This document shows, piece by piece, positions 18,132 to 63,130 of a DNA stretch of 64,000 nucleotides. A program made the position numbers and the translations under genes. The notes beneath the pieces were generated by a model, which saw nothing but the letters and a program-made list of their open reading frames with translations, was not told the DNA's origin and did no database searches. The DNA is from Candidatus Omnitrophota bacterium (lineage in GTDB: Bacteria; Omnitrophota; Gorgyraeia; B26-G9). Positions within the stretch are counted from its first letter, which is position 1. Each line of letters opens with the position of its first letter. The stretch lies in assembly GCA_043814605.1 (NCBI GenBank), contig JBDRJV010000037.1:31899-95898 (forward strand), written 5' to 3'.

Positions 18132-18968
18132 GTGAGGCTAATTAAAGTTTTCAATCTTTGCGTTGTTTTTTTTGCGGTTTTTAGCTTTTTGTCAAAATAC
18201 TGTTTAGAAGCTGCAGATAATCAATGTTTTAAAATAGTTCCTTTTAAAGTAGGTCAATGGGTCGAGTATCAGATCGTTAGTTTAGAGGAGCAAAGTAAAG
18301 ATAATAGATATAAAATTTCAGTTTTAAATGAAGAAATCATTGATGGAGAAATTTATTTTTGGATTGGTTTTGATGTTTTTAACCAAGGAAAAAGAGAAAT
18401 ATCATTTAAGGCCTTAATGAAAAATTTTAAAACAGATGACTTAAAGCTTAAAAAAGAGCAATTTATAGCAGAAGGGATAATAAGTTTTTTCAAAGCTTCG
18501 GATAAACTTTATATAAAAGCAGGTGGTAGCGAGTGGGTAGAGGTTAATCCTAAAACGTACTTTTTAAATTTGAAACTATTAGAAAATTCGTTCTATGAAC
18601 AGGTTCCGGATGAACTAGGGAAAGTTGATTATTCTAAACTTGTGATGATTGGGAGGGAAGAGATTAATGTTTCTTCTCAGGAATTTAACTGTTTGCATTA
18701 CCAAGTAAAAACTAATCCTTCGGATGAATTTTCTGATGAAGGGATAGATTTGTGGCGCTCAGATAAAGTGCCTTTTTTAGGAATTGTAAAATTAGAATTT
18801 TCAAAAACTGATTACGATCTTAAGTTGCGCTATCAAGAAAGCAAAATCCTTGCTTCAAAAAGTATTTTTTATAAAATTTTTTATTACTTATTTAACAAAT
18901 TACCTAAAGATACGCATACTCGTAAAGATATTTATAAAATAAATTTGATTGATTATAAAAATTATTAA
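18132..18968 (+). CDS. Hypothetical secreted protein
   Basis: GTG start. N-terminal signal-peptide-like segment (VFNLCVVFFAVFSFLSKYCLEA). No recognisable domain. Confidence 0.45.
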   Translation: MRLIKVFNLCVVFFAVFSFLSKYCLEAADNQCFKIVPFKVGQWVEYQIVSLEEQSKDNRYKISVLNEEIIDGEIYFWIGFDVFNQGKREISFKALMKNFKTDDLKLKKEQFIAEGIISFFKASDKLYIKAGGSEWVEVNPKTYFLNLKLLENSFYEQVPDELGKVDYSKLVMIGREEINVSSQEFNCLHYQVKTNPSDEFSDEGIDLWRSDKVPFLGIVKLEFSKTDYDLKLRYQESKILASKSIFYKIFYYLFNKLPKDTHTRKDIYKINLIDYKNY

Positions 18969-51757: not shown

Positions 51758-53491
51758 ATGAATTATGCTAAGTATAAGGCTTTTTGCAGAGTAATATATT
51801 GTTATCAAGAATATTGGATTTGGATTGTTTTAGGTATAATAATAAATATTCTAATATTGTTTGTTGTTAATAAGCTTTTAGAAAAGAGTAAGAATTTAAG
51901 CATTAAAAAGTATATAAAAAAAATAAATTTAAATAGAATTGATTATTTATTACTTTTTATGCTAACATTTATTTTTTTTATTTGGAAAATTACTAATATT
52001 AGTAAAGAAAATGTTGATAGTATGGAATCTTTCAACATGCAATTTAATTCTTTATTGAGTACAAATATTATAAAGTTTTTAGATACTTCAATAGTAATTG
52101 CACATAAGTTGATTTATGCAGTTATGCTTAATCTTGTACAAATATTTTGTGCTCCTGAAAATTTAGTTTTTTTGTATAGATTTATTTCTTTTGGTTTTGG
52201 AGTATTATGTTCTTTACTGCTGTTTAAATTTTCAATCAGAGTATTTCAGAATAAATTGATTGCATACCTAGGGTTCATTTTATTCAACTTAAATGCGCTT
52301 TTTTTGTTTTATTGCCGAAGAATTGAAGTTTATTCTATATTTTGTTTTTTTGTATTATTAAGTTTTTATGATTTCTGGAGAATATTTATTGATCGGGATA
52401 AAAATAAGACCTTACGATATGGCATATGGATAATTATTGTATTTTGCTTACATGATACAGGCGTTGTAGTTATTTTTTCGCAGGCTCTTGCTTTATTTTT
52501 TTTAAACAGGAAGCAGCCACTTGAAACTAGAAATTATTTATATTTAAAGTTTATGCAATCGGTACTTGTTTTTGCTTGTTTATTTTTTTTGTTGGGACCT
52601 ATTTTTTGTGCATCAATTATTAGTAATCATTTAATTCTTTACAAAGGTGCTTGGGAAAATAATTTTTATTTAGGTATGGAAAAATTACCGGAACAAATAA
52701 ATACTATGCTGAATTTAATTTTTGGGATGCCCATATTTACGATAGGGCTATTTAGTTTTCCCTTATTTTTTGCAGTTTTTTCGTTAATTAAAAAAAATAA
52801 TAATTTTTTTTGGCTTTTATTAAGCATATTGATATCAAGTATTCTATTTCAGGCAACTTTCATTTATATGTTTTATATTAAAGTTAATGCTTGTTATTTT
52901 AATATTAGGCATTTATTATGGATAGTTCCCTTTATTATCATGATGTATAGTTTTGGTTTTTGTGATTTATGTTTTTTGAGTAATAAAAATTATAAGAAAA
53001 TTTTAGGGTACAGTTTTTTAATTATTATTTTAAGCTCAGGAATTGTGAAATCAAATACTGTTATTTATAGCAATAAAACTCCTGATTACGAGAAAGCATT
53101 TTATTATATTAAAGATAAATTCAAAGATGGAGATTTTTTAGGTTGGCTGTGTTCTTTTACCAGTGATGTATTTTTTATTCACACTAAAAAAAATGATATT
53201 TTTTATGATCATGATAATACCATTTTAGATGAAAGAAGTGCCGGGGTTATATTTAATAATATCGCTTTAAAGCAAAAAAAATTTAAAAGATTTTGGGTGA
53301 TTGTTGCAAAAGAAGATTATTTTGGAGTTGATCATATGAATTTGGAATTTATTGATAAATGCGTTAATTTTTTAAAAAAAGAATTTAAAGAAATTTCTTG
53401 CGTGAAGATGAATAAAATTGATATCTACTTATTTGAATCAACTAGGGAAAGACTGGGGGGTATAATTGAAATTAACAGAAGAATTTTTTAA
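51758..53491 (+). CDS. Polytopic membrane protein, GT-C-like glycosyltransferase candidate
   Basis: 577 aa with >10 TM helices and a C-terminal soluble domain. Confidence 0.45.
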   Translation: MNYAKYKAFCRVIYCYQEYWIWIVLGIIINILILFVVNKLLEKSKNLSIKKYIKKINLNRIDYLLLFMLTFIFFIWKITNISKENVDSMESFNMQFNSLLSTNIIKFLDTSIVIAHKLIYAVMLNLVQIFCAPENLVFLYRFISFGFGVLCSLLLFKFSIRVFQNKLIAYLGFILFNLNALFLFYCRRIEVYSIFCFFVLLSFYDFWRIFIDRDKNKTLRYGIWIIIVFCLHDTGVVVIFSQALALFFLNRKQPLETRNYLYLKFMQSVLVFACLFFLLGPIFCASIISNHLILYKGAWENNFYLGMEKLPEQINTMLNLIFGMPIFTIGLFSFPLFFAVFSLIKKNNNFFWLLLSILISSILFQATFIYMFYIKVNACYFNIRHLLWIVPFIIMMYSFGFCDLCFLSNKNYKKILGYSFLIIILSSGIVKSNTVIYSNKTPDYEKAFYYIKDKFKDGDFLGWLCSFTSDVFFIHTKKNDIFYDHDNTILDERSAGVIFNNIALKQKKFKRFWVIVAKEDYFGVDHMNLEFIDKCVNFLKKEFKEISCVKMNKIDIYLFESTRERLGGIIEINRRIF

Positions 53492-53696: not shown

Positions 53697-54290
53697 ATGA
53701 AAAAAATTTATATAATTCTAAATTATTTACTCCAGTTTCTATCCTGTCCGATATCAGCTCATAAAAAATTTATTAGGAAGGAAATTGTTAAAGAAATAAA
53801 TATAAATTTAAAAAAAAATATTTTAGATTTTGGATGTGGTCACGGAATATTTTCTGGTCTTTTTAAAAATACAAATATCAATTATATTGAACTTGATTGT
53901 GATTTAAATTCACTGCTGTTTGCAAAATATATACATCAAAATAACTTATATTTGTGTGCAGGAGAATTGCTGTGTTTTAAGCAGAATATCTTTGATTATA
54001 TTATACTAAATAATGTTCTGCATCATATGGATAAAAAATCAATTATTAAATTATTTGACGAAATCATACGGGTGCTTAAAAATAAGAGAAAAGTTATAAT
54101 AATTGAATTGCTGCCTTTTGAAAAACAAAGAGGATTTTTTTTAAAAATTGTTACCTCTTTAGAAAAAAAAATAAAAAAAATTTCTTATGTTTCTGATGAT
54201 TTTTTAACAGAAATTGCAAAAAAATATTTTAGAAATATTAAAAAATTAGAAGTAAGCCGCAATTTTATTTCTTATATTTTAGAAAACTAG
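53697..54290 (+). CDS. Class I SAM-dependent methyltransferase
   Basis: ILDFGCGHGIFS matches motif I (GxGxG). Confidence 0.6.
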   Translation: MKKIYIILNYLLQFLSCPISAHKKFIRKEIVKEININLKKNILDFGCGHGIFSGLFKNTNINYIELDCDLNSLLFAKYIHQNNLYLCAGELLCFKQNIFDYIILNNVLHHMDKKSIIKLFDEIIRVLKNKRKVIIIELLPFEKQRGFFLKIVTSLEKKIKKISYVSDDFLTEIAKKYFRNIKKLEVSRNFISYILEN

Positions 54291-54466
54291 CCATTTAAAA
54301 TTAGCTTGAAAATTATCGTGGAAGCTGCTTTTTTAAATCAACTCCCAATTTAAAAAAAAGTAAATAAAGTAAAAAATATCTTTTCTACAATATATTGTGT
54401 CTATTCTTTCTGTAACCTACTATAAATAGTGTTGTTAAATATTTTTAAAAAAACGATATTTTTTTA

Positions 54467-54500
54467 TTGACGTCCCTAAAAAATAGCGTATATTTAATAA
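54467..54500 (+). promoter_or_regulatory. Putative sigma70-type promoter of the mraZ/dcw operon
   Basis: TTGACG at 54467-54472, then a ~16-18 nt spacer, then TATATT/TATTTA/TAATAAT -10 candidates at 54489-54500. It sits directly upstream of the GTGG repeats and the mraZ start. Confidence 0.4.
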
Positions 54501-54501
54501 T

Positions 54502-54525
54502 GTGGTTAAAAGTGGAGGAAAGTGG
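54502..54525 (+). promoter_or_regulatory. MraZ operator: three direct GTGG repeats at 10-bp spacing
   Basis: GTGGttaaaaGTGGaggaaaGTGGag has GTGG at 54502, 54512 and 54522. It ends 5 nt before the mraZ ATG and overlaps the GGAG RBS. MraZ boxes in other bacteria are direct GTGG(G)-N6 repeats in the same place. Confidence 0.55.
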
Positions 54526-54530
54526 AGTAG

Positions 54531-54971
54531 ATGTTTTATGGCGAATTTGAACATTCATTAGATAAAAAAAGCCGTGTGATTATTCCGGCTAAATTTCGGG
54601 AAGCATTTAAAGAAAATTTTGTCGAAAAATTTTTCGTTACCCGAGGGTTAGATAGCTGTTTGTTTTTATTCACGGAAGAAGAATGGAAAAAACAGGAACA
54701 AAAATTTAAAGCACTTTCTTTTACCAAGCCGGAAGCAAGGAAATTTAATCGTTTGTTTTTTTCTGGTGCCAGTGAAATTATCTGCGACTCACAAGGAAGA
54801 GTTTTGATTCCTCAATACCTTAAGGATTTCGCGCAAATACAAAAGGATGTTGTAATTATTGGAGTTTCTAATCGAATAGAAATCTGGAGTAAAAATCGCT
54901 GGAAGGAATTTTATGAAAATACTAGAGGAACCTTTGAGGATACTGCCGAAAAACTCATGGGTTTGGAATGA
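54531..54971 (+). CDS. mraZ: Transcriptional regulator MraZ
   Basis: MFYGEFEHSLDKKSRVIIPAKFRE is the classic MraZ N-terminus. The protein contains duplicated SpoVT/AbrB-like halves. Confidence 0.9.
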   Translation: MFYGEFEHSLDKKSRVIIPAKFREAFKENFVEKFFVTRGLDSCLFLFTEEEWKKQEQKFKALSFTKPEARKFNRLFFSGASEIICDSQGRVLIPQYLKDFAQIQKDVVIIGVSNRIEIWSKNRWKEFYENTRGTFEDTAEKLMGLE

Positions 54972-54978
54972 AGAGGAA

Positions 54979-55866
54979 ATGGGCCGACACACCCCGGTAA
55001 TGTATGATGAAGTAGTAGCGTACCTGAAGCTTTCACCAGGGAAGGTGATTGTTGATTGTACTTTGGGGGAAGGGGGGCATAGTGAAGGCATACTGAGAAA
55101 GATAACGCCAGGCGGACAGCTCATTGGCATAGATCAGGATGATGATGCTTTGAGTATAACCCGCCTGCGTCTTTCTCGCTTTGAAGATTCTGTGAGGCTA
55201 GTTCATGATAATTTTCAAAATATTAGGGTTATTTTGAAACGTTTGGGATTAGATAAAGTGGATGGTTTTGTTATGGATCTAGGAATATCTTCTTTGCAAT
55301 TATCTGCTCCGGAACGCGGGTTTAGTTTTCAAATCGATGGCCCTCTCAATATGCGTATGGATAAAAAAGCTCAAATTACTGCTTTTGATTTAGTCAATAA
55401 TTTAAGTGAAGAAGAAATTGCGAATGTTATATATATTTTTGGTCAAGAGAGATTTAGCCGTAGAATTGCACGTAACATTGTACAACAGCGCAACAAACAT
55501 GTAATTACAACCACTCAAGAACTGGCTAATTTAATAATCGAATCTGTTCCCAAACATCAAAGATTTAGAAAAATTCATCCGGCAACCAGAACATTTATGG
55601 CGTTACGGATTGCAGTTAACAGAGAATTGGAAGTCTTACAAAGCACACTTAAAGATGCGGTTGATTTACTGAATCCCGGAGGGAGGATTTGTGTGATTTC
55701 TTTTCATTCTTTAGAAGACAGGATTGTAAAGAATGAATTTAAGTCCCAAGCCAGAAATTCCGTAATAAAAATAATTACAAAAAAACCGCTTGTGCCAACA
55801 CAAAACGAAATCCAGGAAAATCATCGTAGTCGTAGTGCAAAACTCCGGGTGGCTGAGAAAATATAA
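54979..55866 (+). CDS. rsmH: 16S rRNA (cytosine1402-N4)-methyltransferase RsmH
   Basis: MGRHTPVMYDEVV...GEGGHSE...GIDQD are RsmH/MraW motifs. The ORF track starts at 54913, but ATG 54979 (AGAGGAA RBS, just after the mraZ stop) is the likely start. Confidence 0.85.
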   Translation: MGRHTPVMYDEVVAYLKLSPGKVIVDCTLGEGGHSEGILRKITPGGQLIGIDQDDDALSITRLRLSRFEDSVRLVHDNFQNIRVILKRLGLDKVDGFVMDLGISSLQLSAPERGFSFQIDGPLNMRMDKKAQITAFDLVNNLSEEEIANVIYIFGQERFSRRIARNIVQQRNKHVITTTQELANLIIESVPKHQRFRKIHPATRTFMALRIAVNRELEVLQSTLKDAVDLLNPGGRICVISFHSLEDRIVKNEFKSQARNSVIKIITKKPLVPTQNEIQENHRSRSAKLRVAEKI

Positions 55867-55898: not shown

Positions 55899-56273
55899 GT
55901 GAGCTTAAAAAAGACACTCATATTTGCTGTAATAACCACTTGTTTATCTATAAGTTATGTTAATCAACAAATTTCTGTGGTTAAACTAAGTTATCAACTT
56001 CGGAGTAAAGAAAAAAACCTGTCTGAACTAATTGACCAAAATAGAATTTTATTATATAATAATGCCAGCCTAAAATCACCACAGTATTTAGCCGGAATGC
56101 TCAAAGAAAATGATCAAGAATTAACATTTCCGGATACTACTGTTGTGGCAAAAGTAAAAATGGTGAGAAAAGATCACAGGCAGCAGGTGAAAACAACGAA
56201 AAGTAACTGGAGAACTAAATTGCTTGATTTGTTTATTCCTAAAGCACAAGCAGCGTTAGATAAAAGACAATAG
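55899..56273 (+). CDS. ftsL: Cell division protein FtsL-like (single-pass membrane protein)
   Basis: Position between rsmH and ftsI. GTG start. One TM helix (LIFAVITTCLSISYV) followed by a coiled-coil-like segment. Confidence 0.6.
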   Translation: MSLKKTLIFAVITTCLSISYVNQQISVVKLSYQLRSKEKNLSELIDQNRILLYNNASLKSPQYLAGMLKENDQELTFPDTTVVAKVKMVRKDHRQQVKTTKSNWRTKLLDLFIPKAQAALDKRQ

Positions 56274-56335: not shown

Positions 56336-58021
56336 GTGTATAAAAAGGCGCAAAAAATTCGCCTGAGTATAGTTTTTTTCTTTTTTCTTTTAATTCTCCT
56401 AATTATTCTAGTTCGTCTGCTGAATATTCAGGTTCTGAATAATCAGCATTATTTAGAGCTAGCTGATTCGCAACATCATCTAACCTTAACTCTTTATCCG
56501 CAAAGAGGATTAATCTATGACCGAAATCTGAAGGTTTTGGCGTTGAGTTTAAAAGTTTTTTCTGTGTATGCCGAGCCAAGATTAATTGATAATAAATTAG
56601 AAGTAGCGCAAAAATTGGCGGATCTATTAGATTTAGATTATGATAAAACTTTAACCCAGCTTCAAAAGGATAAATCATTTGTTTGGATAAAAAGAAGGAT
56701 TGAGCAAAATCAGGCACAAGCAGTTAATGATTTAAAATTGTATGGAGTGGGATTATTAAAGGAAAATAAACGCTATTATCCGAATAATGAATTAGCAGCG
56801 CATGTATTAGGATTTACGGGAATTGATGATTCCGGGCTGGAAGGACTGGAACTAGAGTATGATTCATATTTAAAAGGAGAATCAGGTTATCGGTCGTTAC
56901 TGCGTGATGCTAAGCAAAGGATGTTGCCTGCTTTTGAGTATGAGTATGTTCCGGCAATGGATGGATATAATTTAGTCTTAACAATTGATCAGATAATTCA
57001 ACATATTGTTGAGGAAGAGTTAAATAAAGCATTTGATAAAAATCAGGCAAAGGGAGCTTCCGTACTTGTTATGAATCCTGAAAACGGAGAGATTTTTGCT
57101 TTAGCTAATCGCCCGGGGTATGATTTAAATTTATTTGAAACTGCAACTTCAGACCAAAGACGCAATCGGGCAGTGTGTGATTATTTTGAACCTGGTTCTA
57201 CCTTTAAAATTATTACAGCCACCGCAGCTTTGTCCGAAAAAGCTGTTGAACTTGATGAGGTATTTTTTTGCGAAAATGGAACTTATCAAATTTCCCGGCA
57301 TACATTGCATGATCATCGGCCACACGGGGATTTAACATTTGTTGAGGTTATTGAAAAATCAAGTAATATTGGTACAGTAAAAGTCGCGCAAAAACTGGGA
57401 GCAGAAGTATTATATAAATATATTAAAAATTTTGAATTTGCGGAAAAAACTAGTATTGATTTATCCGGGGAAACTGCCGGGTTTTTAAGGCCGGTAGCTG
57501 GTTGGTCAAAATTATCAATTGCAGCTATTCCCATTGGACATGAAATTGGAGTTTCAGTTTTACAAATGGCCAAAGCTATGGCGGTAATTGCCAATGGCGG
57601 ATATTTAGTTAAACCGCATCTAGTAAATAAAATAATTGATAATAACCAGCAAATCATAAAGGAATTTGATTATTCACAAAAAAAATCCATTATTTCACCG
57701 GATATTGCTAAAAAAATGCAGGAAATTTTAAAAGGAGTTGTTGAACGCGGTACGGCTAAAAAAGCAAAAATTGATGGATATACAGCTGCAGGAAAAACAG
57801 GTACAGCCCAAAAATTAAATCCTCAAGGCGGGTACTCACATGATCTGTTTATCGCATCTTTTATCGGATTTGCTCCGGTCAAAAATCCAAAGGTTGTAAT
57901 TGCGGTTGTTTTTGATGAACCCAAGCCGGTTTATTATGGCGGGGTTGTGTGTGCTCCAATTTTTAAAAATATAGCCGAAAAAGTGTTAAGATATATGAAT
58001 ACAGAAAAAGAAAGTAAATAA
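56336..58021 (+). CDS. ftsI: Penicillin-binding protein (class B transpeptidase, FtsI/PBP3-like)
   Basis: N-terminal TM anchor and PBP dimerisation region. Transpeptidase motifs STFK (SxxK), SSN and KTGTA are present. Confidence 0.85.
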   Translation: MYKKAQKIRLSIVFFFFLLILLIILVRLLNIQVLNNQHYLELADSQHHLTLTLYPQRGLIYDRNLKVLALSLKVFSVYAEPRLIDNKLEVAQKLADLLDLDYDKTLTQLQKDKSFVWIKRRIEQNQAQAVNDLKLYGVGLLKENKRYYPNNELAAHVLGFTGIDDSGLEGLELEYDSYLKGESGYRSLLRDAKQRMLPAFEYEYVPAMDGYNLVLTIDQIIQHIVEEELNKAFDKNQAKGASVLVMNPENGEIFALANRPGYDLNLFETATSDQRRNRAVCDYFEPGSTFKIITATAALSEKAVELDEVFFCENGTYQISRHTLHDHRPHGDLTFVEVIEKSSNIGTVKVAQKLGAEVLYKYIKNFEFAEKTSIDLSGETAGFLRPVAGWSKLSIAAIPIGHEIGVSVLQMAKAMAVIANGGYLVKPHLVNKIIDNNQQIIKEFDYSQKKSIISPDIAKKMQEILKGVVERGTAKKAKIDGYTAAGKTGTAQKLNPQGGYSHDLFIASFIGFAPVKNPKVVIAVVFDEPKPVYYGGVVCAPIFKNIAEKVLRYMNTEKESK

Positions 58022-59527
58022 ATGTTAGCTTCAGAAATAATAAAACTTCTAAAAATTAAGCCCCAGGCTAAAAATTTTGTAGATTTTGAAGTCAAAGGCA
58101 TTAGTATTGATTCTCGTAATGTCGCAAATGATTTTTGTTTTATCGCTCAAGACGGAACTAAAACAAACGGATATGAATTTATTCAAGCGGCGATAGAAAA
58201 AGGGGCACGTTTGATTATTTATCCTGAATTTTATCCTGAACCTAAAATTAATTCCTTAGAATTAGCAAAGAAGACAATTTTCCTAAAAACTGATAATCTG
58301 CGCAAAGTTACCGGGCTAATTGCGGCGGAATTTTTCCAGAGGCCTTCCCGTAATTTACAAATGATTGGGGTAACAGGCACTAACGGAAAAACAACAGTTA
58401 CTTTTTTTATTGAACATTTACTCAAAAAAAATCAAATTAAAACGGGCATGATTTCTACTGTCTATTACAAAATTGATGATCATATTATTGATGCGACCCA
58501 TACTACCCCGGATGCGATAAAACTACAGCAGTTATTTTTTAATATGATTAATCATAATATTTCCCATTGTGTTATGGAAGTTTCCTCCCATGCTTTAGAC
58601 CAGAAAAGGGTTTCAGAAATTGATTTCCAATGTGCAGTGTTTACGAATTTGAGTCAAGATCATTTAGATTACCATGTGGATATGGAAAATTATTTTAAGA
58701 CAAAAGCACAATTGTTTAAACGTCTTAGTAAAAATAGTTTTGCCGTAATAAATACGGATGATCCTTGCGGTATCCGGCTTAAAAAAATTACTCAAGCAAA
58801 AATTATTGGTTATGCGGTTATGGATAAAAATGCAACTGTCCGGGCACAAAATATAGTTTTTGATTTAAATTCAACAACTTTTGATATAATCACACCCGCA
58901 GGTATACTGCCGGTTAAGACTAAATTTATCGGCCGCTATAATATTTATAATATTTTAGCTTGTATTTGTGTAGGGCTTGCCCAAAATATTGAATTAAATT
59001 CTATTGTTAAAGCAATCCAAACCATGGATTCTGTTCCGGGAAGATTAGAAAGATTATCAAATAATAACATTTTTGAGATTTTTGTTGATTATGCTCATAC
59101 GGATGATGCATTAACTAAAGTTTTGACAACTTTAAAAGAACTAAAACCGCATAAGATTATTACAGTTTTTGGCTGCGGGGGAAATCGAGATACAAAAAAA
59201 AGGCCGCTTATGGGTAAAGCCGCAAGTTTGTTGTCAGATTTTTTGATTTTAACTAATGATAATCCGCGTAATGAAAACCCGGAAAAAATCATTGCAGATA
59301 TTCAGTCAGGGTTTGAGGTTAGTTTTAAAAATTTTGAAGTAATTTTAGACAGAAAAAAAGCAATCGAAAAAGCAATCACAAGAGCGCAACAGGATGACTT
59401 TATTTTAGTTGCCGGTAAAGGACATGAAAATTACCAAATTTTTGGTGATAAGAAAATTGATTTTGATGATCGAAAAATAATAAAGGATCTCCTGCTGACT
59501 AGCCCCAAGCTTACCTTAGGAGAATGA
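58022..59527 (+). CDS. murE: UDP-N-acetylmuramoyl-L-alanyl-D-glutamate--2,6-diaminopimelate ligase MurE
   Basis: GVTGTNGKTT P-loop. DNPRNENP (the DNPR motif) indicates meso-DAP specificity. Position in the dcw cluster fits. Confidence 0.85.
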   Translation: MLASEIIKLLKIKPQAKNFVDFEVKGISIDSRNVANDFCFIAQDGTKTNGYEFIQAAIEKGARLIIYPEFYPEPKINSLELAKKTIFLKTDNLRKVTGLIAAEFFQRPSRNLQMIGVTGTNGKTTVTFFIEHLLKKNQIKTGMISTVYYKIDDHIIDATHTTPDAIKLQQLFFNMINHNISHCVMEVSSHALDQKRVSEIDFQCAVFTNLSQDHLDYHVDMENYFKTKAQLFKRLSKNSFAVINTDDPCGIRLKKITQAKIIGYAVMDKNATVRAQNIVFDLNSTTFDIITPAGILPVKTKFIGRYNIYNILACICVGLAQNIELNSIVKAIQTMDSVPGRLERLSNNNIFEIFVDYAHTDDALTKVLTTLKELKPHKIITVFGCGGNRDTKKRPLMGKAASLLSDFLILTNDNPRNENPEKIIADIQSGFEVSFKNFEVILDRKKAIEKAITRAQQDDFILVAGKGHENYQIFGDKKIDFDDRKIIKDLLLTSPKLTLGE

Positions 59528-60939
59528 TGGTTACACCGGTTGTAAGCCGGGAACGGAAAGATATGTTTAGACTTAATGAAATAGTTAAATGGACAAACGC
59601 ACAATCAGTTAATATGAGTTCAGATAGGCCTATCTGCGGAATTTCGATTGATTCGCGTACAATAAAGAAGGCAGAATTATTTGTGGCGATTTGTGGTGAT
59701 AAATTTAATGGGCATGATTATTTATTTGAGGCAGAAGAAAAAAGAGCAAGTGCTGTTTTAATCAATAAAAAATGGGCAGATTTCCACCCGGATCAGATTA
59801 ACGGGCTTTCCTGTCCGGTAATTTTAGTGGAAAATACAAATAACGCATTGATGGATATGGCAAAAGGACACCGGAAAAAATTTAATATTCCAGTAATTGC
59901 TGTAACTGGATCAAACGGGAAAACCACAACCAAAGAAATGCTCGCAGAAGTTCTCAGTGCCCGATTTAAGGTATTAAAGAGCAAGGCTTCTTTTAATAAT
60001 AATATTGGTGTTCCGCTGAGTATCCTCGAACTTAATGCTGGACATGATGCTGCTGTATTAGAATTAGGCATGAATCATCCCGGTGAAATTCGCATTTTGA
60101 GTTCAATTGTTAGGCCAAATATTGCAATTATCACTAATGTTGCGGCAGCTCATCTCGGATTTTTCAACAGCGTTGATGAGATTATCAGTGCTAAATGTGA
60201 ATTAATTGAAAAAGCAAATGAACTTGATTTAGTGATTTCTAATGCTGATTGCCTAGATTTGTTTCATAAAATTAAAGAACATATTTTATCTGCTGTAGGG
60301 ATAGGAATTAAAAATAAGTGCTCTTACCAGGCATCCAATGTTATCAGCCGTCAAGAAGGGGTAGCTTTTACCTTGAACTTAAAGGACACATTTAGGTTGA
60401 ATTTATTGGGTGAGCATAATGTTTACAATGCGTTGTGCGCGATTGCGGTTGCGGATCATTTTAAAATTGATATGAGTATAGTACGGGAAAGACTAAAAGA
60501 AATAAAACCGGCTAAAATGAGAATGGAAAGAATTAATTTTCAAGGTATAGAAATAATTGCCGATTGCTATAATGCTAACCCCCAGTCTGTAACCGCAGCG
60601 ATTGAAACGCTTGCGGCGATGAGTTATAAGAAAAGACGGATATTTATTTTAGGCGATATGCTTGAATTAGGAACACATAGTGATAAATTCCATGCACAAA
60701 TCGGAGAACTTTTTACGGATATAAGAATAGATAAGCTGGTTACAATCGGTGAAAAAGCAGCGTTAAGCGCAGAGGTTGCGCTTAAATTAGGAAATAAAAA
60801 AAATAATGTGTTTATGTATGATTCCGTAGAATTAGCTCAGACAGAAATATTTCAAATGCTAAAAGAGGGGGATGTGGTTTTAATCAAAGGATCACGCCTA
60901 ATGCAATTAGAAAAACTTATTCCTGGTTATAAATTATAG
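59524..60939 (+). CDS. murF: UDP-N-acetylmuramoyl-tripeptide--D-alanyl-D-alanine ligase MurF
   Basis: AVTGSNGKTTTKEM P-loop. 4-nt overlap with murE. Position in the dcw cluster fits. Confidence 0.85.
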   Translation: MMVTPVVSRERKDMFRLNEIVKWTNAQSVNMSSDRPICGISIDSRTIKKAELFVAICGDKFNGHDYLFEAEEKRASAVLINKKWADFHPDQINGLSCPVILVENTNNALMDMAKGHRKKFNIPVIAVTGSNGKTTTKEMLAEVLSARFKVLKSKASFNNNIGVPLSILELNAGHDAAVLELGMNHPGEIRILSSIVRPNIAIITNVAAAHLGFFNSVDEIISAKCELIEKANELDLVISNADCLDLFHKIKEHILSAVGIGIKNKCSYQASNVISRQEGVAFTLNLKDTFRLNLLGEHNVYNALCAIAVADHFKIDMSIVRERLKEIKPAKMRMERINFQGIEIIADCYNANPQSVTAAIETLAAMSYKKRRIFILGDMLELGTHSDKFHAQIGELFTDIRIDKLVTIGEKAALSAEVALKLGNKKNNVFMYDSVELAQTEIFQMLKEGDVVLIKGSRLMQLEKLIPGYKL

Positions 60940-60953
60940 ATAGGGATAGGAAA

Positions 60954-61658
60954 ATGTTTCTTATGCGATATTTCATAAAAAAAATTCTGACATTAATTTT
61001 AGTTTTTTTATTTTTAGGAGTGTTTGATAAAAGTTTTGCTGAAGATTTATCAGAATATTTTCCTCTAGCTATAGGCAATGAATGGCATTATGAGCAAAAT
61101 TCAACTGATGATTTGTTTATTGTAAAAGCAGAAAAAGCTGCTTCTAATCATTTCTTTAATAATCAAGATATAATAAAGCTTGTTAATAGCGAATTAAGCT
61201 CAATTTATTTACAAAAAACGATAAATGGGATTATATTCTTAGGAAACTCTTCTGTAAAAAGTGATTTTAATTTTTATAATAAGAAACCGTTAATGTTTCT
61301 ACCTTTTAACAAAAAATATTATAAATATGGAATTATGGAAGAAGAAACAGAAATTTATATGCCGGAAAATAATTCTGACAATGTAGCTGAAATTAAGTTG
61401 AATGTCAAAGTGTGTGGAAAGGAAAACGTGTTCGTAAAAGCAGGAGATTTTTTTAATTGCTATAAATTAATTTCTACTATTACCATCTATAACAAAATTA
61501 ATAATTTTATTTATATTTTTACTGAATATGGCTGGTATGGAAAAGGGGTGGGAAAGGTAAAATATGTTTTAAAATTATCTTTTTTAAACCAGGGGCAAAT
61601 TGATACTCAAACCCAACTTTTTGAACTTAAGGAATGTTTTATTACCAGTAATCATTAA
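60954..61658 (+). CDS. Hypothetical secreted protein inserted in dcw cluster
   Basis: N-terminal signal-peptide-like segment (ILTLILVFLFLGVFDKSFA). No recognisable domain. Confidence 0.45.
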   Translation: MFLMRYFIKKILTLILVFLFLGVFDKSFAEDLSEYFPLAIGNEWHYEQNSTDDLFIVKAEKAASNHFFNNQDIIKLVNSELSSIYLQKTINGIIFLGNSSVKSDFNFYNKKPLMFLPFNKKYYKYGIMEEETEIYMPENNSDNVAEIKLNVKVCGKENVFVKAGDFFNCYKLISTITIYNKINNFIYIFTEYGWYGKGVGKVKYVLKLSFLNQGQIDTQTQLFELKECFITSNH

Positions 61659-61681
61659 AATATTAGCAAAGGTTACTTGTT

Positions 61682-63130
61682 ATGAATAAAAGAAAAAAAA
61701 TTTTAATTGTACTAGGTCTGCTAGGAAGCGTTATTTGTTTTATTTGCTCAGATTTGTTTTTTATGAATTTATCTTTTTTTCTGATTGATAATTTTCAGAA
61801 AAAATTAGATAGTTATGTGAATGCAGTGAATTTTGAATTAGCAAGTAATAAATATCAATTTTTAGGAGGGAACAGAGAAAAATACTTATTAAAAGACCAG
61901 AATAATAACTTATGGCTTTTTAAGGTCACAGATGATTCTACAGTTGATAGAGTAGTTTTTTTTAATAAAATTATTATTTTTTTGGGAGTGGAAACTCCGC
62001 TGCTTTGCCGATATGAAATGTATATAAATAATATTAAGAAAAGAGGGTATCTTCAGAGTTTTTTAAAAAAATATAAAGATCCTGTAAATAAGCTTATGGA
62101 AAAAGATGATTTTAGTAAAAGAATCTATCCGAAAATTGTAAGAAATGAGCTTCTCGCCTGGATTTTTTTTATGAAAATTTCTCAGAATATAATTGATGAT
62201 AAAACTCAAATTTATTTTATTGATTTAGATAATGCATTTGCTTTAAAAAATAAAGTTAAAAACAATGAGCCTAGTGATAAAGATTTAAAATACCTAGAAT
62301 CTTTCTTCAGCATATTAGAAGGAGACAATAAAAAGTTTATTTATTCATTCGTAGATTGTTTATCCATGTTGAATAAAGACTATTTATTAAATCAGATGAA
62401 AAAAGAAGTAAAAACAGCTAAGGGGCATTTTTTTGTGGACATCAAACATTTTATAAATCGAAAAAATAAGCTAGGTACTTTTTGTAAGACATTGGAAGAT
62501 AATGATATTTTTTTTTATAACAGATTTTTTTATAAGATGAATGTTTTGAAATGTTTATTTAGAAAATTTGGAAGTCATTCGATGCGAATTGGTGATAAAA
62601 AAAACAAGGGGAATCATTCGATTGCTGTAATTGGATCTTCTGATTGTTGGAATTATTTTAATAAAAATTGTAATTATAAAATAATTAATGGGGTATCGCA
62701 AAAAGAACTTTCTATTATTCGCAAACAGATAATTAGCCAACTTTTAGTGATAAGAATGAGTAAGGCTTTAGTTGAGGAAAAACTGGCGGCAACAATTTAT
62801 ATCATGCAGTTTAATGCTTTTTTAAATTATTTTAAAAACTCAAATATTCCTGATAATGATGGCGTTTACCCGCCATTTTTTTTTAGTGAATCGATTATTC
62901 AAGTAGTTCAAAGTGTAGATTCATTTGTAAATTTGAAAAATATTGAAGAGCATTATTTCTTTAAAAAATTTAAATATACTAATTATTTAAGCTATGAGCC
63001 AGGAGAAAAGGCTTATATTTATGGATTAATTAATAGGCTGCAGGGAAATAACCGCGAAGCTTTAAATTTTTTTAACCAGGCTTTAAATAATCAATATGCT
63101 ACGGAAGAAATACAGTATATAATAAATTAA
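61682..63130 (+). CDS. Hypothetical membrane-anchored protein inserted in dcw cluster
   Basis: N-terminal TM (ILIVLGLLGSVICFICS). 482 aa. The C-terminal ~100 aa are helical and repeat-like. No confident domain. Confidence 0.45.
   Translation: MNKRKKILIVLGLLGSVICFICSDLFFMNLSFFLIDNFQKKLDSYVNAVNFELASNKYQFLGGNREKYLLKDQNNNLWLFKVTDDSTVDRVVFFNKIIIFLGVETPLLCRYEMYINNIKKRGYLQSFLKKYKDPVNKLMEKDDFSKRIYPKIVRNELLAWIFFMKISQNIIDDKTQIYFIDLDNAFALKNKVKNNEPSDKDLKYLESFFSILEGDNKKFIYSFVDCLSMLNKDYLLNQMKKEVKTAKGHFFVDIKHFINRKNKLGTFCKTLEDNDIFFYNRFFYKMNVLKCLFRKFGSHSMRIGDKKNKGNHSIAVIGSSDCWNYFNKNCNYKIINGVSQKELSIIRKQIISQLLVIRMSKALVEEKLAATIYIMQFNAFLNYFKNSNIPDNDGVYPPFFFSESIIQVVQSVDSFVNLKNIEEHYFFKKFKYTNYLSYEPGEKAYIYGLINRLQGNNREALNFFNQALNNQYATEEIQYIIN

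Follow-up and report, generated by a model that had tools for sequence, protein, structure and literature searches.

A predicted MraZ operator of three GTGG boxes at the mra promoter of a Candidatus Omnitrophota bacterium

The window, that is, the whole stretch of DNA analyzed here, comprises 64,000 nucleotides from a Candidatus Omnitrophota bacterium, a member of an uncultured phylum of the PVC group. It contains a mraZ–rsmH–ftsL–ftsI–murE–murF block with mraZ at its head, encoded on the same strand throughout and with gaps of 0 to 62 nt. Directly in front of mraZ lie a promoter-like site and three direct GTGG repeats (Table 1). The second Mur ligase is the last gene of the block; the two ORFs behind it (60954–63130) encode 234 and 482 aa and have no Pfam match at 1e-5, and the N terminus of the 234-aa product is signal-peptide-like. 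In many bacteria, mraY and murD directly follow at this place of the dcw cluster; in the window, both are absent from the position directly after the second Mur ligase. On the upstream side, two genes before mraZ, a 577-aa ORF (51758–53491) resembles a multi-pass membrane protein by sequence and has no Pfam match at 1e-3, and a SAM-methyltransferase-like ORF (53697–54290) lies between it and the mra promoter. The window has a GC content of 29.5%, with G (17.7%) exceeding C (11.9%) on the + strand. All dcw genes are located on this G-rich strand, consistent with a leading-strand position.

Table 1. Features of the mra region in the window, with positions numbered from the first letter of the window
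Feature	Position	Strand	Basis
-35 hexamer TTGACG of the mra promoter, with a T-rich tract just 5'	54467..54472	+	Promoter scan; TTGAC upstream of the array in 78/78 array-bearing loci
-10 hexamer TATATT, 16-nt spacer from the -35	54489..54494	+	Promoter scan; equivalents in relatives
Inferred transcription start	54500..54502	+	Promoter geometry only, 6–8 nt past the -10 and level with the 5' end of box 1
MraZ operator (predicted), three GTGG boxes	54502..54525	+	Sequence, rarity, conservation, E. coli layout, literature consensus (PMC12957436, bioRxiv 10.1101/2022.02.09.479790, PMC8475190)
Shine–Dalgarno-like GGAGG inside box 2, 12 nt before ATG	54514..54518	+	Sequence; putative RBS
Shine–Dalgarno-like GGAG overlapping box 3, 3 nt before ATG	54524..54527	+	Sequence; putative RBS
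mraZ, 146 aa	54531..54971	+	PF02381, E 1.3e-41; two SpoVT/AbrB-like stretches
rsmH (mraW), 16S rRNA methyltransferase, 7 nt after the mraZ stop	54979..55866	+	PF01795, E 3e-111
Small ORF, 124 aa, ftsL position	55899..56273	+	Position only; without Pfam match
ftsI-type penicillin-binding protein	56336..58021	+	PF00905, E 1.7e-80; PF03717, E 6.5e-23
Two Mur ligases, murE and murF positions	58022..59527, 59524..60939	+	Mur_ligase_M, Mur_ligase_C, and Mur_ligase domains

MraZ of the window matches solved MraZ structures (1N0E, E 2.5e-21; 9QLR, E 8e-19) and is 33% identical to E. coli MraZ. The way in which such a protein reads its site was determined by cryo-EM and mutagenesis in M. genitalium: Lys13, Arg15, and Arg86—positioned by Asp11 and Asp82—read TG(T/G) in successive major grooves of double-stranded DNA (PMC12957436). 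The window protein carries D11-K12-K13-S14-R15 and D86-S-Q-G-R90, and D11, K13, R15, D86, and R90 align with D11, K13, R15, D82, and R86 of the M. genitalium protein. Both DXXXR motifs and the contact residue Lys13 are thus present. The D-x-K-x-R motif is invariant in all 80 related MraZ proteins that were compared.

The mra promoter of the window is a sigma-70-like TTGACG-16-TATATT site that agrees with the consensus at 10 of 12 positions in the promoter scan. The gap between TATATT and box 1 is 7 nt. At the equivalent place, the relatives feature TATACT, TATATT, or TAAACT as the -10 hexamer. In the 240-nt intergenic region, a scan for promoters and terminators yields no second promoter-like site on the + strand, nor does it find an intrinsic terminator between the promoter and the methyltransferase gene that precedes it. 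By promoter geometry, the array would span roughly +1 to +24 from the transcription start. In M. genitalium, the mapped transcription start lies within box 1 (PMC12957436), and in B. cenocepacia, the repeats are located downstream of the -10 and overlap the transcription start (PMC7761207).

The array itself reads GTGGTTAAAAGTGGAGGAAAGTGG (54502–54525), with GTGG boxes at 54502–54505, 54512–54515, and 54522–54525, and hence an exact period of 10 bp. Boxes 2 and 3 together read AAAGTGGAG, and the 5-nt gap between box 3 and the mraZ ATG at 54531 is AGTAG (54526–54530). The first-pass annotation had described a triple GTGG repeat with 10-bp phasing that ends 5 nt before the mraZ ATG and lies just downstream of a TTGACG/TATATT promoter; its coordinates, phasing, and gap are all correct, and the promoter is found where it was placed, 7 nt before box 1. 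The pattern GTGG-N6-GTGG-N6-GTGG has a single match on both strands of the window and occurs in none of 100 dinucleotide-preserving shuffles. From the base composition (GC 29.5%), approximately 4.6e-4 matches are expected by chance per window and approximately 5e-7 in the 100 nt upstream of mraZ. As in the published consensus for MraZ boxes—at least three direct GTG(G/T) repeats, 10 bp apart, with 6-nt spacers (PMC12957436)—the window has three such repeats at this distance, directly upstream of mraZ, with which the mra/dcw operon begins.

The double pattern GTGG-N6-GTGG has four matches in the window in all, compared with a chance expectation of 0.22. Two of these are extra double boxes on the + strand, one at 59683–59696 inside the murF-position gene and one at 18523–18536 inside ORF 18132–18968. 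A search of the window for the triple pattern with up to two mismatches returns the match at 18523, inside an ORF, as the sole addition, a count at chance level. The double boxes at 18523 and 59683 were considered as further MraZ operators and set aside; both lie within ORFs. The dcw cluster of B. subtilis likewise contains an internal double repeat (bioRxiv 10.1101/2022.02.09.479790).

Conservation of the array was assessed in 80 related loci obtained by a scan with the MraZ protein, taking one genome per GTDB species. Nearly all of these are labeled Candidatus Omnitrophota, and their MraZ proteins are 63 to 88% identical to that of the window. All were retrieved via mraZ itself, so that the comparison covers mraZ-bearing genomes. 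Within 300 nt upstream of mraZ, a perfect triple array is found in 74 of the 81 loci (window included) and an 11/12 match in four more, which gives 78 of 81 loci with an array. The remaining three (L018, L044, and L077) feature only two good boxes; hence, three boxes are not obligatory. No further perfect array occurs on either strand of the 526 kb that cover the compared loci. The arrays of the 78 loci fall into 43 distinct sequences and their promoter-plus-array stretches into 76, which indicates that the cores are kept while the spacers drift.

The flanks of the boxes are conserved as well. The three positions before boxes 2 and 3, which were not used in locating the arrays, carry A in 82 to 99% of cases. 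The two bases 3' of the GTGG cores lean toward A and G, with positions 5 and 6 of the boxes remaining variable. The repeat unit in these loci is AAAGTGG(A)(G), and its AAAGTGG part fits the Mollicutes site AAAGTG[T/G] (PMC8475190; PMC12957436).

An alternative origin of the array is a chance repeat or a recent 10-bp tandem duplication without function. Taken together with their flanks, boxes 2 and 3 (AAGTGGAGGA and AAGTGGAGTA) do resemble a tandem duplication. However, only about 5e-4 triple arrays are expected by chance per window, the GTGG cores are invariant across 78 species whose spacers differ, and the same array is present in E. coli. This origin has next to no probability, and the conservation data effectively refute it already.

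The position of the array relative to its neighbors is informative in its own right. From the start of TTGAC to box 1, the distance is 34 to 45 nt in the 78 array-bearing loci; a class of distances of 22 was discounted as resulting from a spurious internal TTGAC, as were a few spurious GATAAT picks for the -10. The number of nucleotides from box 3 to the ATG is 1, 5, 7, 8, 9, 11 to 13, 24 to 32, 98, 140 to 147, or 234. With the promoter distance constrained and the ATG distance ranging from 1 to 234 nt, the array travels with the promoter and not with the RBS or the start codon. At the short extreme, the array ends 1 nt before the ATG in L016 and L017, which places the RBS of these two loci entirely within the operator. 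L012 and L080 have long leaders, of 98 nt and 234 nt.

The Pmra promoter of E. coli carries an MraZ operator of three direct repeats downstream of the -10, according to Eraso et al. (2014, J Bacteriol 196:2053) as cited in PMC8475190 and PMC7761207. Read directly, the region upstream of mraZ in E. coli K-12 is TTGACA-18-TAAACT-7 nt-GTGGgaaattGTGGggcaaaGTGG-20 nt-ATG. It shares with the window the GTGG-N6-GTGG-N6-GTGG core, the period, and the 7-nt offset from the -10, and in both the array precedes mraZ–rsmH–ftsL–ftsI. The two sites differ in the boxes, which are GTGGG in E. coli (published as a TGGGN unit) and GTGG(A/T)(G/T) in the window. They also differ in the distance to the gene: in E. 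coli, 20 nt lie between the array and the ATG, enough for a separate RBS, whereas the gap in the window is 5 nt.

The MBRs of B. subtilis consist of three GTGG[A/T]G repeats with 4-nt spacers, and the triple repeat is found at Pmra only; repression requires the repeats as well as R15 and R86 (bioRxiv 10.1101/2022.02.09.479790). Unit and period are the same as in the window, where boxes 2 and 3 are GTGGAG and box 1 is GTGGTT, and the triple repeat is unique in the B. subtilis genome as it is in the window. The two sites come from different phyla, the Bacillota and the Omnitrophota.

The MraZ box of Mollicutes is AAAGTG[T/G], according to Fisunov et al. (2016) as cited in PMC8475190. Like the window, Mollicutes feature an A-rich 5' flank, a GTG(G/T) core, and a 10-bp period. 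In M. genitalium, repression via the MraZ boxes was shown (PMC8475190, PMC12957436), and the cluster is de-repressed in a mraZ mutant (PMC8475190). The start, mapped within box 1 in M. genitalium, would lie at the 5' edge of box 1 in the window, and the contact residues K13, R15, and R86 of the M. genitalium protein are conserved. M. genitalium has four boxes, mostly GTGT, whereas the window has three, all GTGG.

The PmraBc promoter of B. cenocepacia was studied by EMSA, which shows MraZ binding to a repeat-containing probe—this work concerns binding only (PMC7761207). As in the window, the repeats lie downstream of the -10. The site is otherwise different: in B. cenocepacia, four repeats of 7 nt are separated by 3-nt spacers and the leader measures 100 nt, compared with three boxes and a leader of approximately 30 nt in the window.

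Taken from its sequence and its setting, the 24-bp array is very probably the MraZ operator of the mra (dcw) promoter in this Candidatus Omnitrophota bacterium. The first-pass annotation had proposed an MraZ autoregulatory operator, adding that MraZ proteins of diverse bacteria bind such arrays upstream of their own operon, and the proposal holds up well. E. coli has the same core, spacing, and 7-nt offset, the contact residues are kept, and the array fits the published boxes of E. coli, B. subtilis, Mollicutes, and Burkholderia. Of the checks that had been suggested, the comparison with the consensus agrees with Mollicutes AAAGTG[T/G], B. subtilis GTGG[A/T]G, and the E. coli core, and the search of orthologous mraZ upstream regions bears the array out, with 74 of 81 loci perfect and four more at 11/12.

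The mechanism suggested by these homologies would be as follows. MraZ, the first product of the operon, would assemble as a ring-shaped oligomer, and successive subunits would insert a β-sheet "cradle" into major grooves, three in a row, along one face of the DNA. Lys13, Arg15, and Arg90 would form the cradle, with Asp11 and Asp86 fixing their position, such that each MraZ subunit would read one (A)AAGTGG box. As the boxes begin 7 nt after the -10 and would cover roughly +1 to +24, bound MraZ is predicted to overlap the footprint of RNA polymerase and may block open-complex formation or promoter escape—either excluding the polymerase or trapping it. The outcome would be negative autoregulation of mraZ–rsmH–ftsL–ftsI–murE–murF. 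Homology and geometry are what point to MraZ binding at the array, to the transcription start, and to the sign of regulation.

The role of MraZ as a repressor is probable as well, as judged by homology and position, but is graded somewhat lower than the identity of the site because overexpression of MraZ in M. gallisepticum is reported, as cited in PMC12957436, to activate the operon. The array could accordingly be an MraZ site at which MraZ acts as an activator or dual regulator of the mra promoter, and the sign at the window promoter follows from position alone. Yet boxes downstream of the -10 and over the predicted start occupy the classic position of a repressor site. The same layout is found in E. 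coli, B. subtilis, M. genitalium, and B. cenocepacia, with repression measured in the first three (bioRxiv 10.1101/2022.02.09.479790; PMC8475190; PMC12957436), and a near-consensus promoter (10/12) should not require an activator. Activation or dual regulation is thus improbable at this promoter.

A further question is whether the repeats also act on translation. The leader of the window is approximately 30 nt long, 24 of which are array, so that the Shine–Dalgarno sequence must be built from box sequence, either GGAGG or GGAG. The overlap of array and RBS is explained by the very short leader in the sub-clade of the window. Shine–Dalgarno-like tetramers also stand close to other predicted starts: GAGG at -6 to -3 of rsmH (region 54973–54978), GGAG at -5 to -2 of murF (59514–59523), and AGGA at -6 to -3 of ORF 60954 (60939–60953). 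Short Shine–Dalgarno spacing may be usual in this genome. The GGAG at 54524–54527 is a plausible RBS since the tetramers of rsmH and murF are likewise 1 to 3 nt from their starts.

It could be argued from this overlap that the repeats function mainly at the RNA level, with the three GUGGAG units serving as Shine–Dalgarno or standby sites or as the target of an RNA-binding protein, be it MraZ or a CsrA-like GGA binder. Both GGAGG and GGAG are Shine–Dalgarno-like and lie inside boxes, and in 28 of the 78 loci at most 9 nt separate box 3 from the ATG, so that the RBS must overlap the array there. The comparison of loci speaks against this. The site has no fixed position relative to the Shine–Dalgarno sequence or the start codon across orthologues, as a translational operator should have, whereas it stands at a fixed distance from the promoter. 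In one clade, the leader measures 140 to 147 nt, and the array is unchanged though far from any RBS. The invariant bases are G-T-G-G, including the T, and not GGA or GGAGG, and box positions 5 and 6 vary; a reading as CsrA-like GGA sites was rejected on these grounds. The window leader itself has no stable structure (z = +1.39 versus shuffled sequences) and matches no Rfam family, with a search over 54200–54600 at a permissive E-value returning nothing. Lastly, MraZ contacts the major groove of DNA, and in the MraZ studies consulted, its binding is described for double-stranded DNA only (PMC12957436). A function mainly in the RNA is extremely unlikely.

The Shine–Dalgarno sequence within the boxes is therefore a coding overlap and not evidence of MraZ acting on the mRNA. 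The first-pass annotation had noted that the third repeat overlaps a GGAG RBS and had taken this to suggest combined transcriptional and translational occlusion. The overlap is real (54524–54527), but the translational part finds no support, given that MraZ recognizes DNA in its double-stranded form and that the array keeps its place relative to the promoter. A milder version, in which selection in the sub-clade of the window acts jointly on one 24-nt stretch, both for its use as a DNA operator and for its use as an RNA RBS (GUGGAGG/GUGGAG), is very unlikely too. Were it true, the three Shine–Dalgarno-like units could tune or couple mraZ translation besides transcriptional autorepression, for instance by acting as standby sites or via the RsmH-modified ribosome.

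A sister clade of Omnitrophota (L019, L021–L024, L027, and L030, together with the ten metagenome contigs L082–L091) features a different arrangement. Here, the promoter and the triple array are followed by a conserved leader of 140 to 151 nt before mraZ, located, for example, at 2431–2577 of L019 and 2857–3000 of L021. Approximately 105 nt of this leader form two hairpins enclosed by a long closing stem, GGUUGUGGGUCC / GGGCCCACAACC. A GNRA loop with the variants GCAA, GUGA, GAGA, and GUAA caps one of the hairpins, and in 4 of 11 sequences one pair of the closing stem shows covariation, with A-U in place of G-C. Even at E = 5, Rfam contains no match to the leader, which is a candidate for a new cis-regulatory RNA of the dcw operon. 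The structured leader is absent from the window, and the long leaders of L012 and L080 are unrelated to it in sequence.

The MraZ operator at the mra promoter of the window is almost certainly a canonical one—a well-known and, in itself, ordinary element, found here in Omnitrophota. No description of MraZ boxes in Omnitrophota came up in the literature search, and the present analysis extends this known autoregulatory element of the dcw promoter to Candidatus Omnitrophota. The comparison of 78 species yields a clean consensus, AAAGTGG(A)(G), and an operator whose position follows the promoter rather than the start codon. In metagenome-assembled genomes, annotation can use the array as a marker of the mra promoter and of the correct start of mraZ. 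E. coli and the window have in common the core, the 10-bp period, and the 7-nt distance to the -10, which reinforces the view of the MraZ-operator module as ancient and nearly universal.
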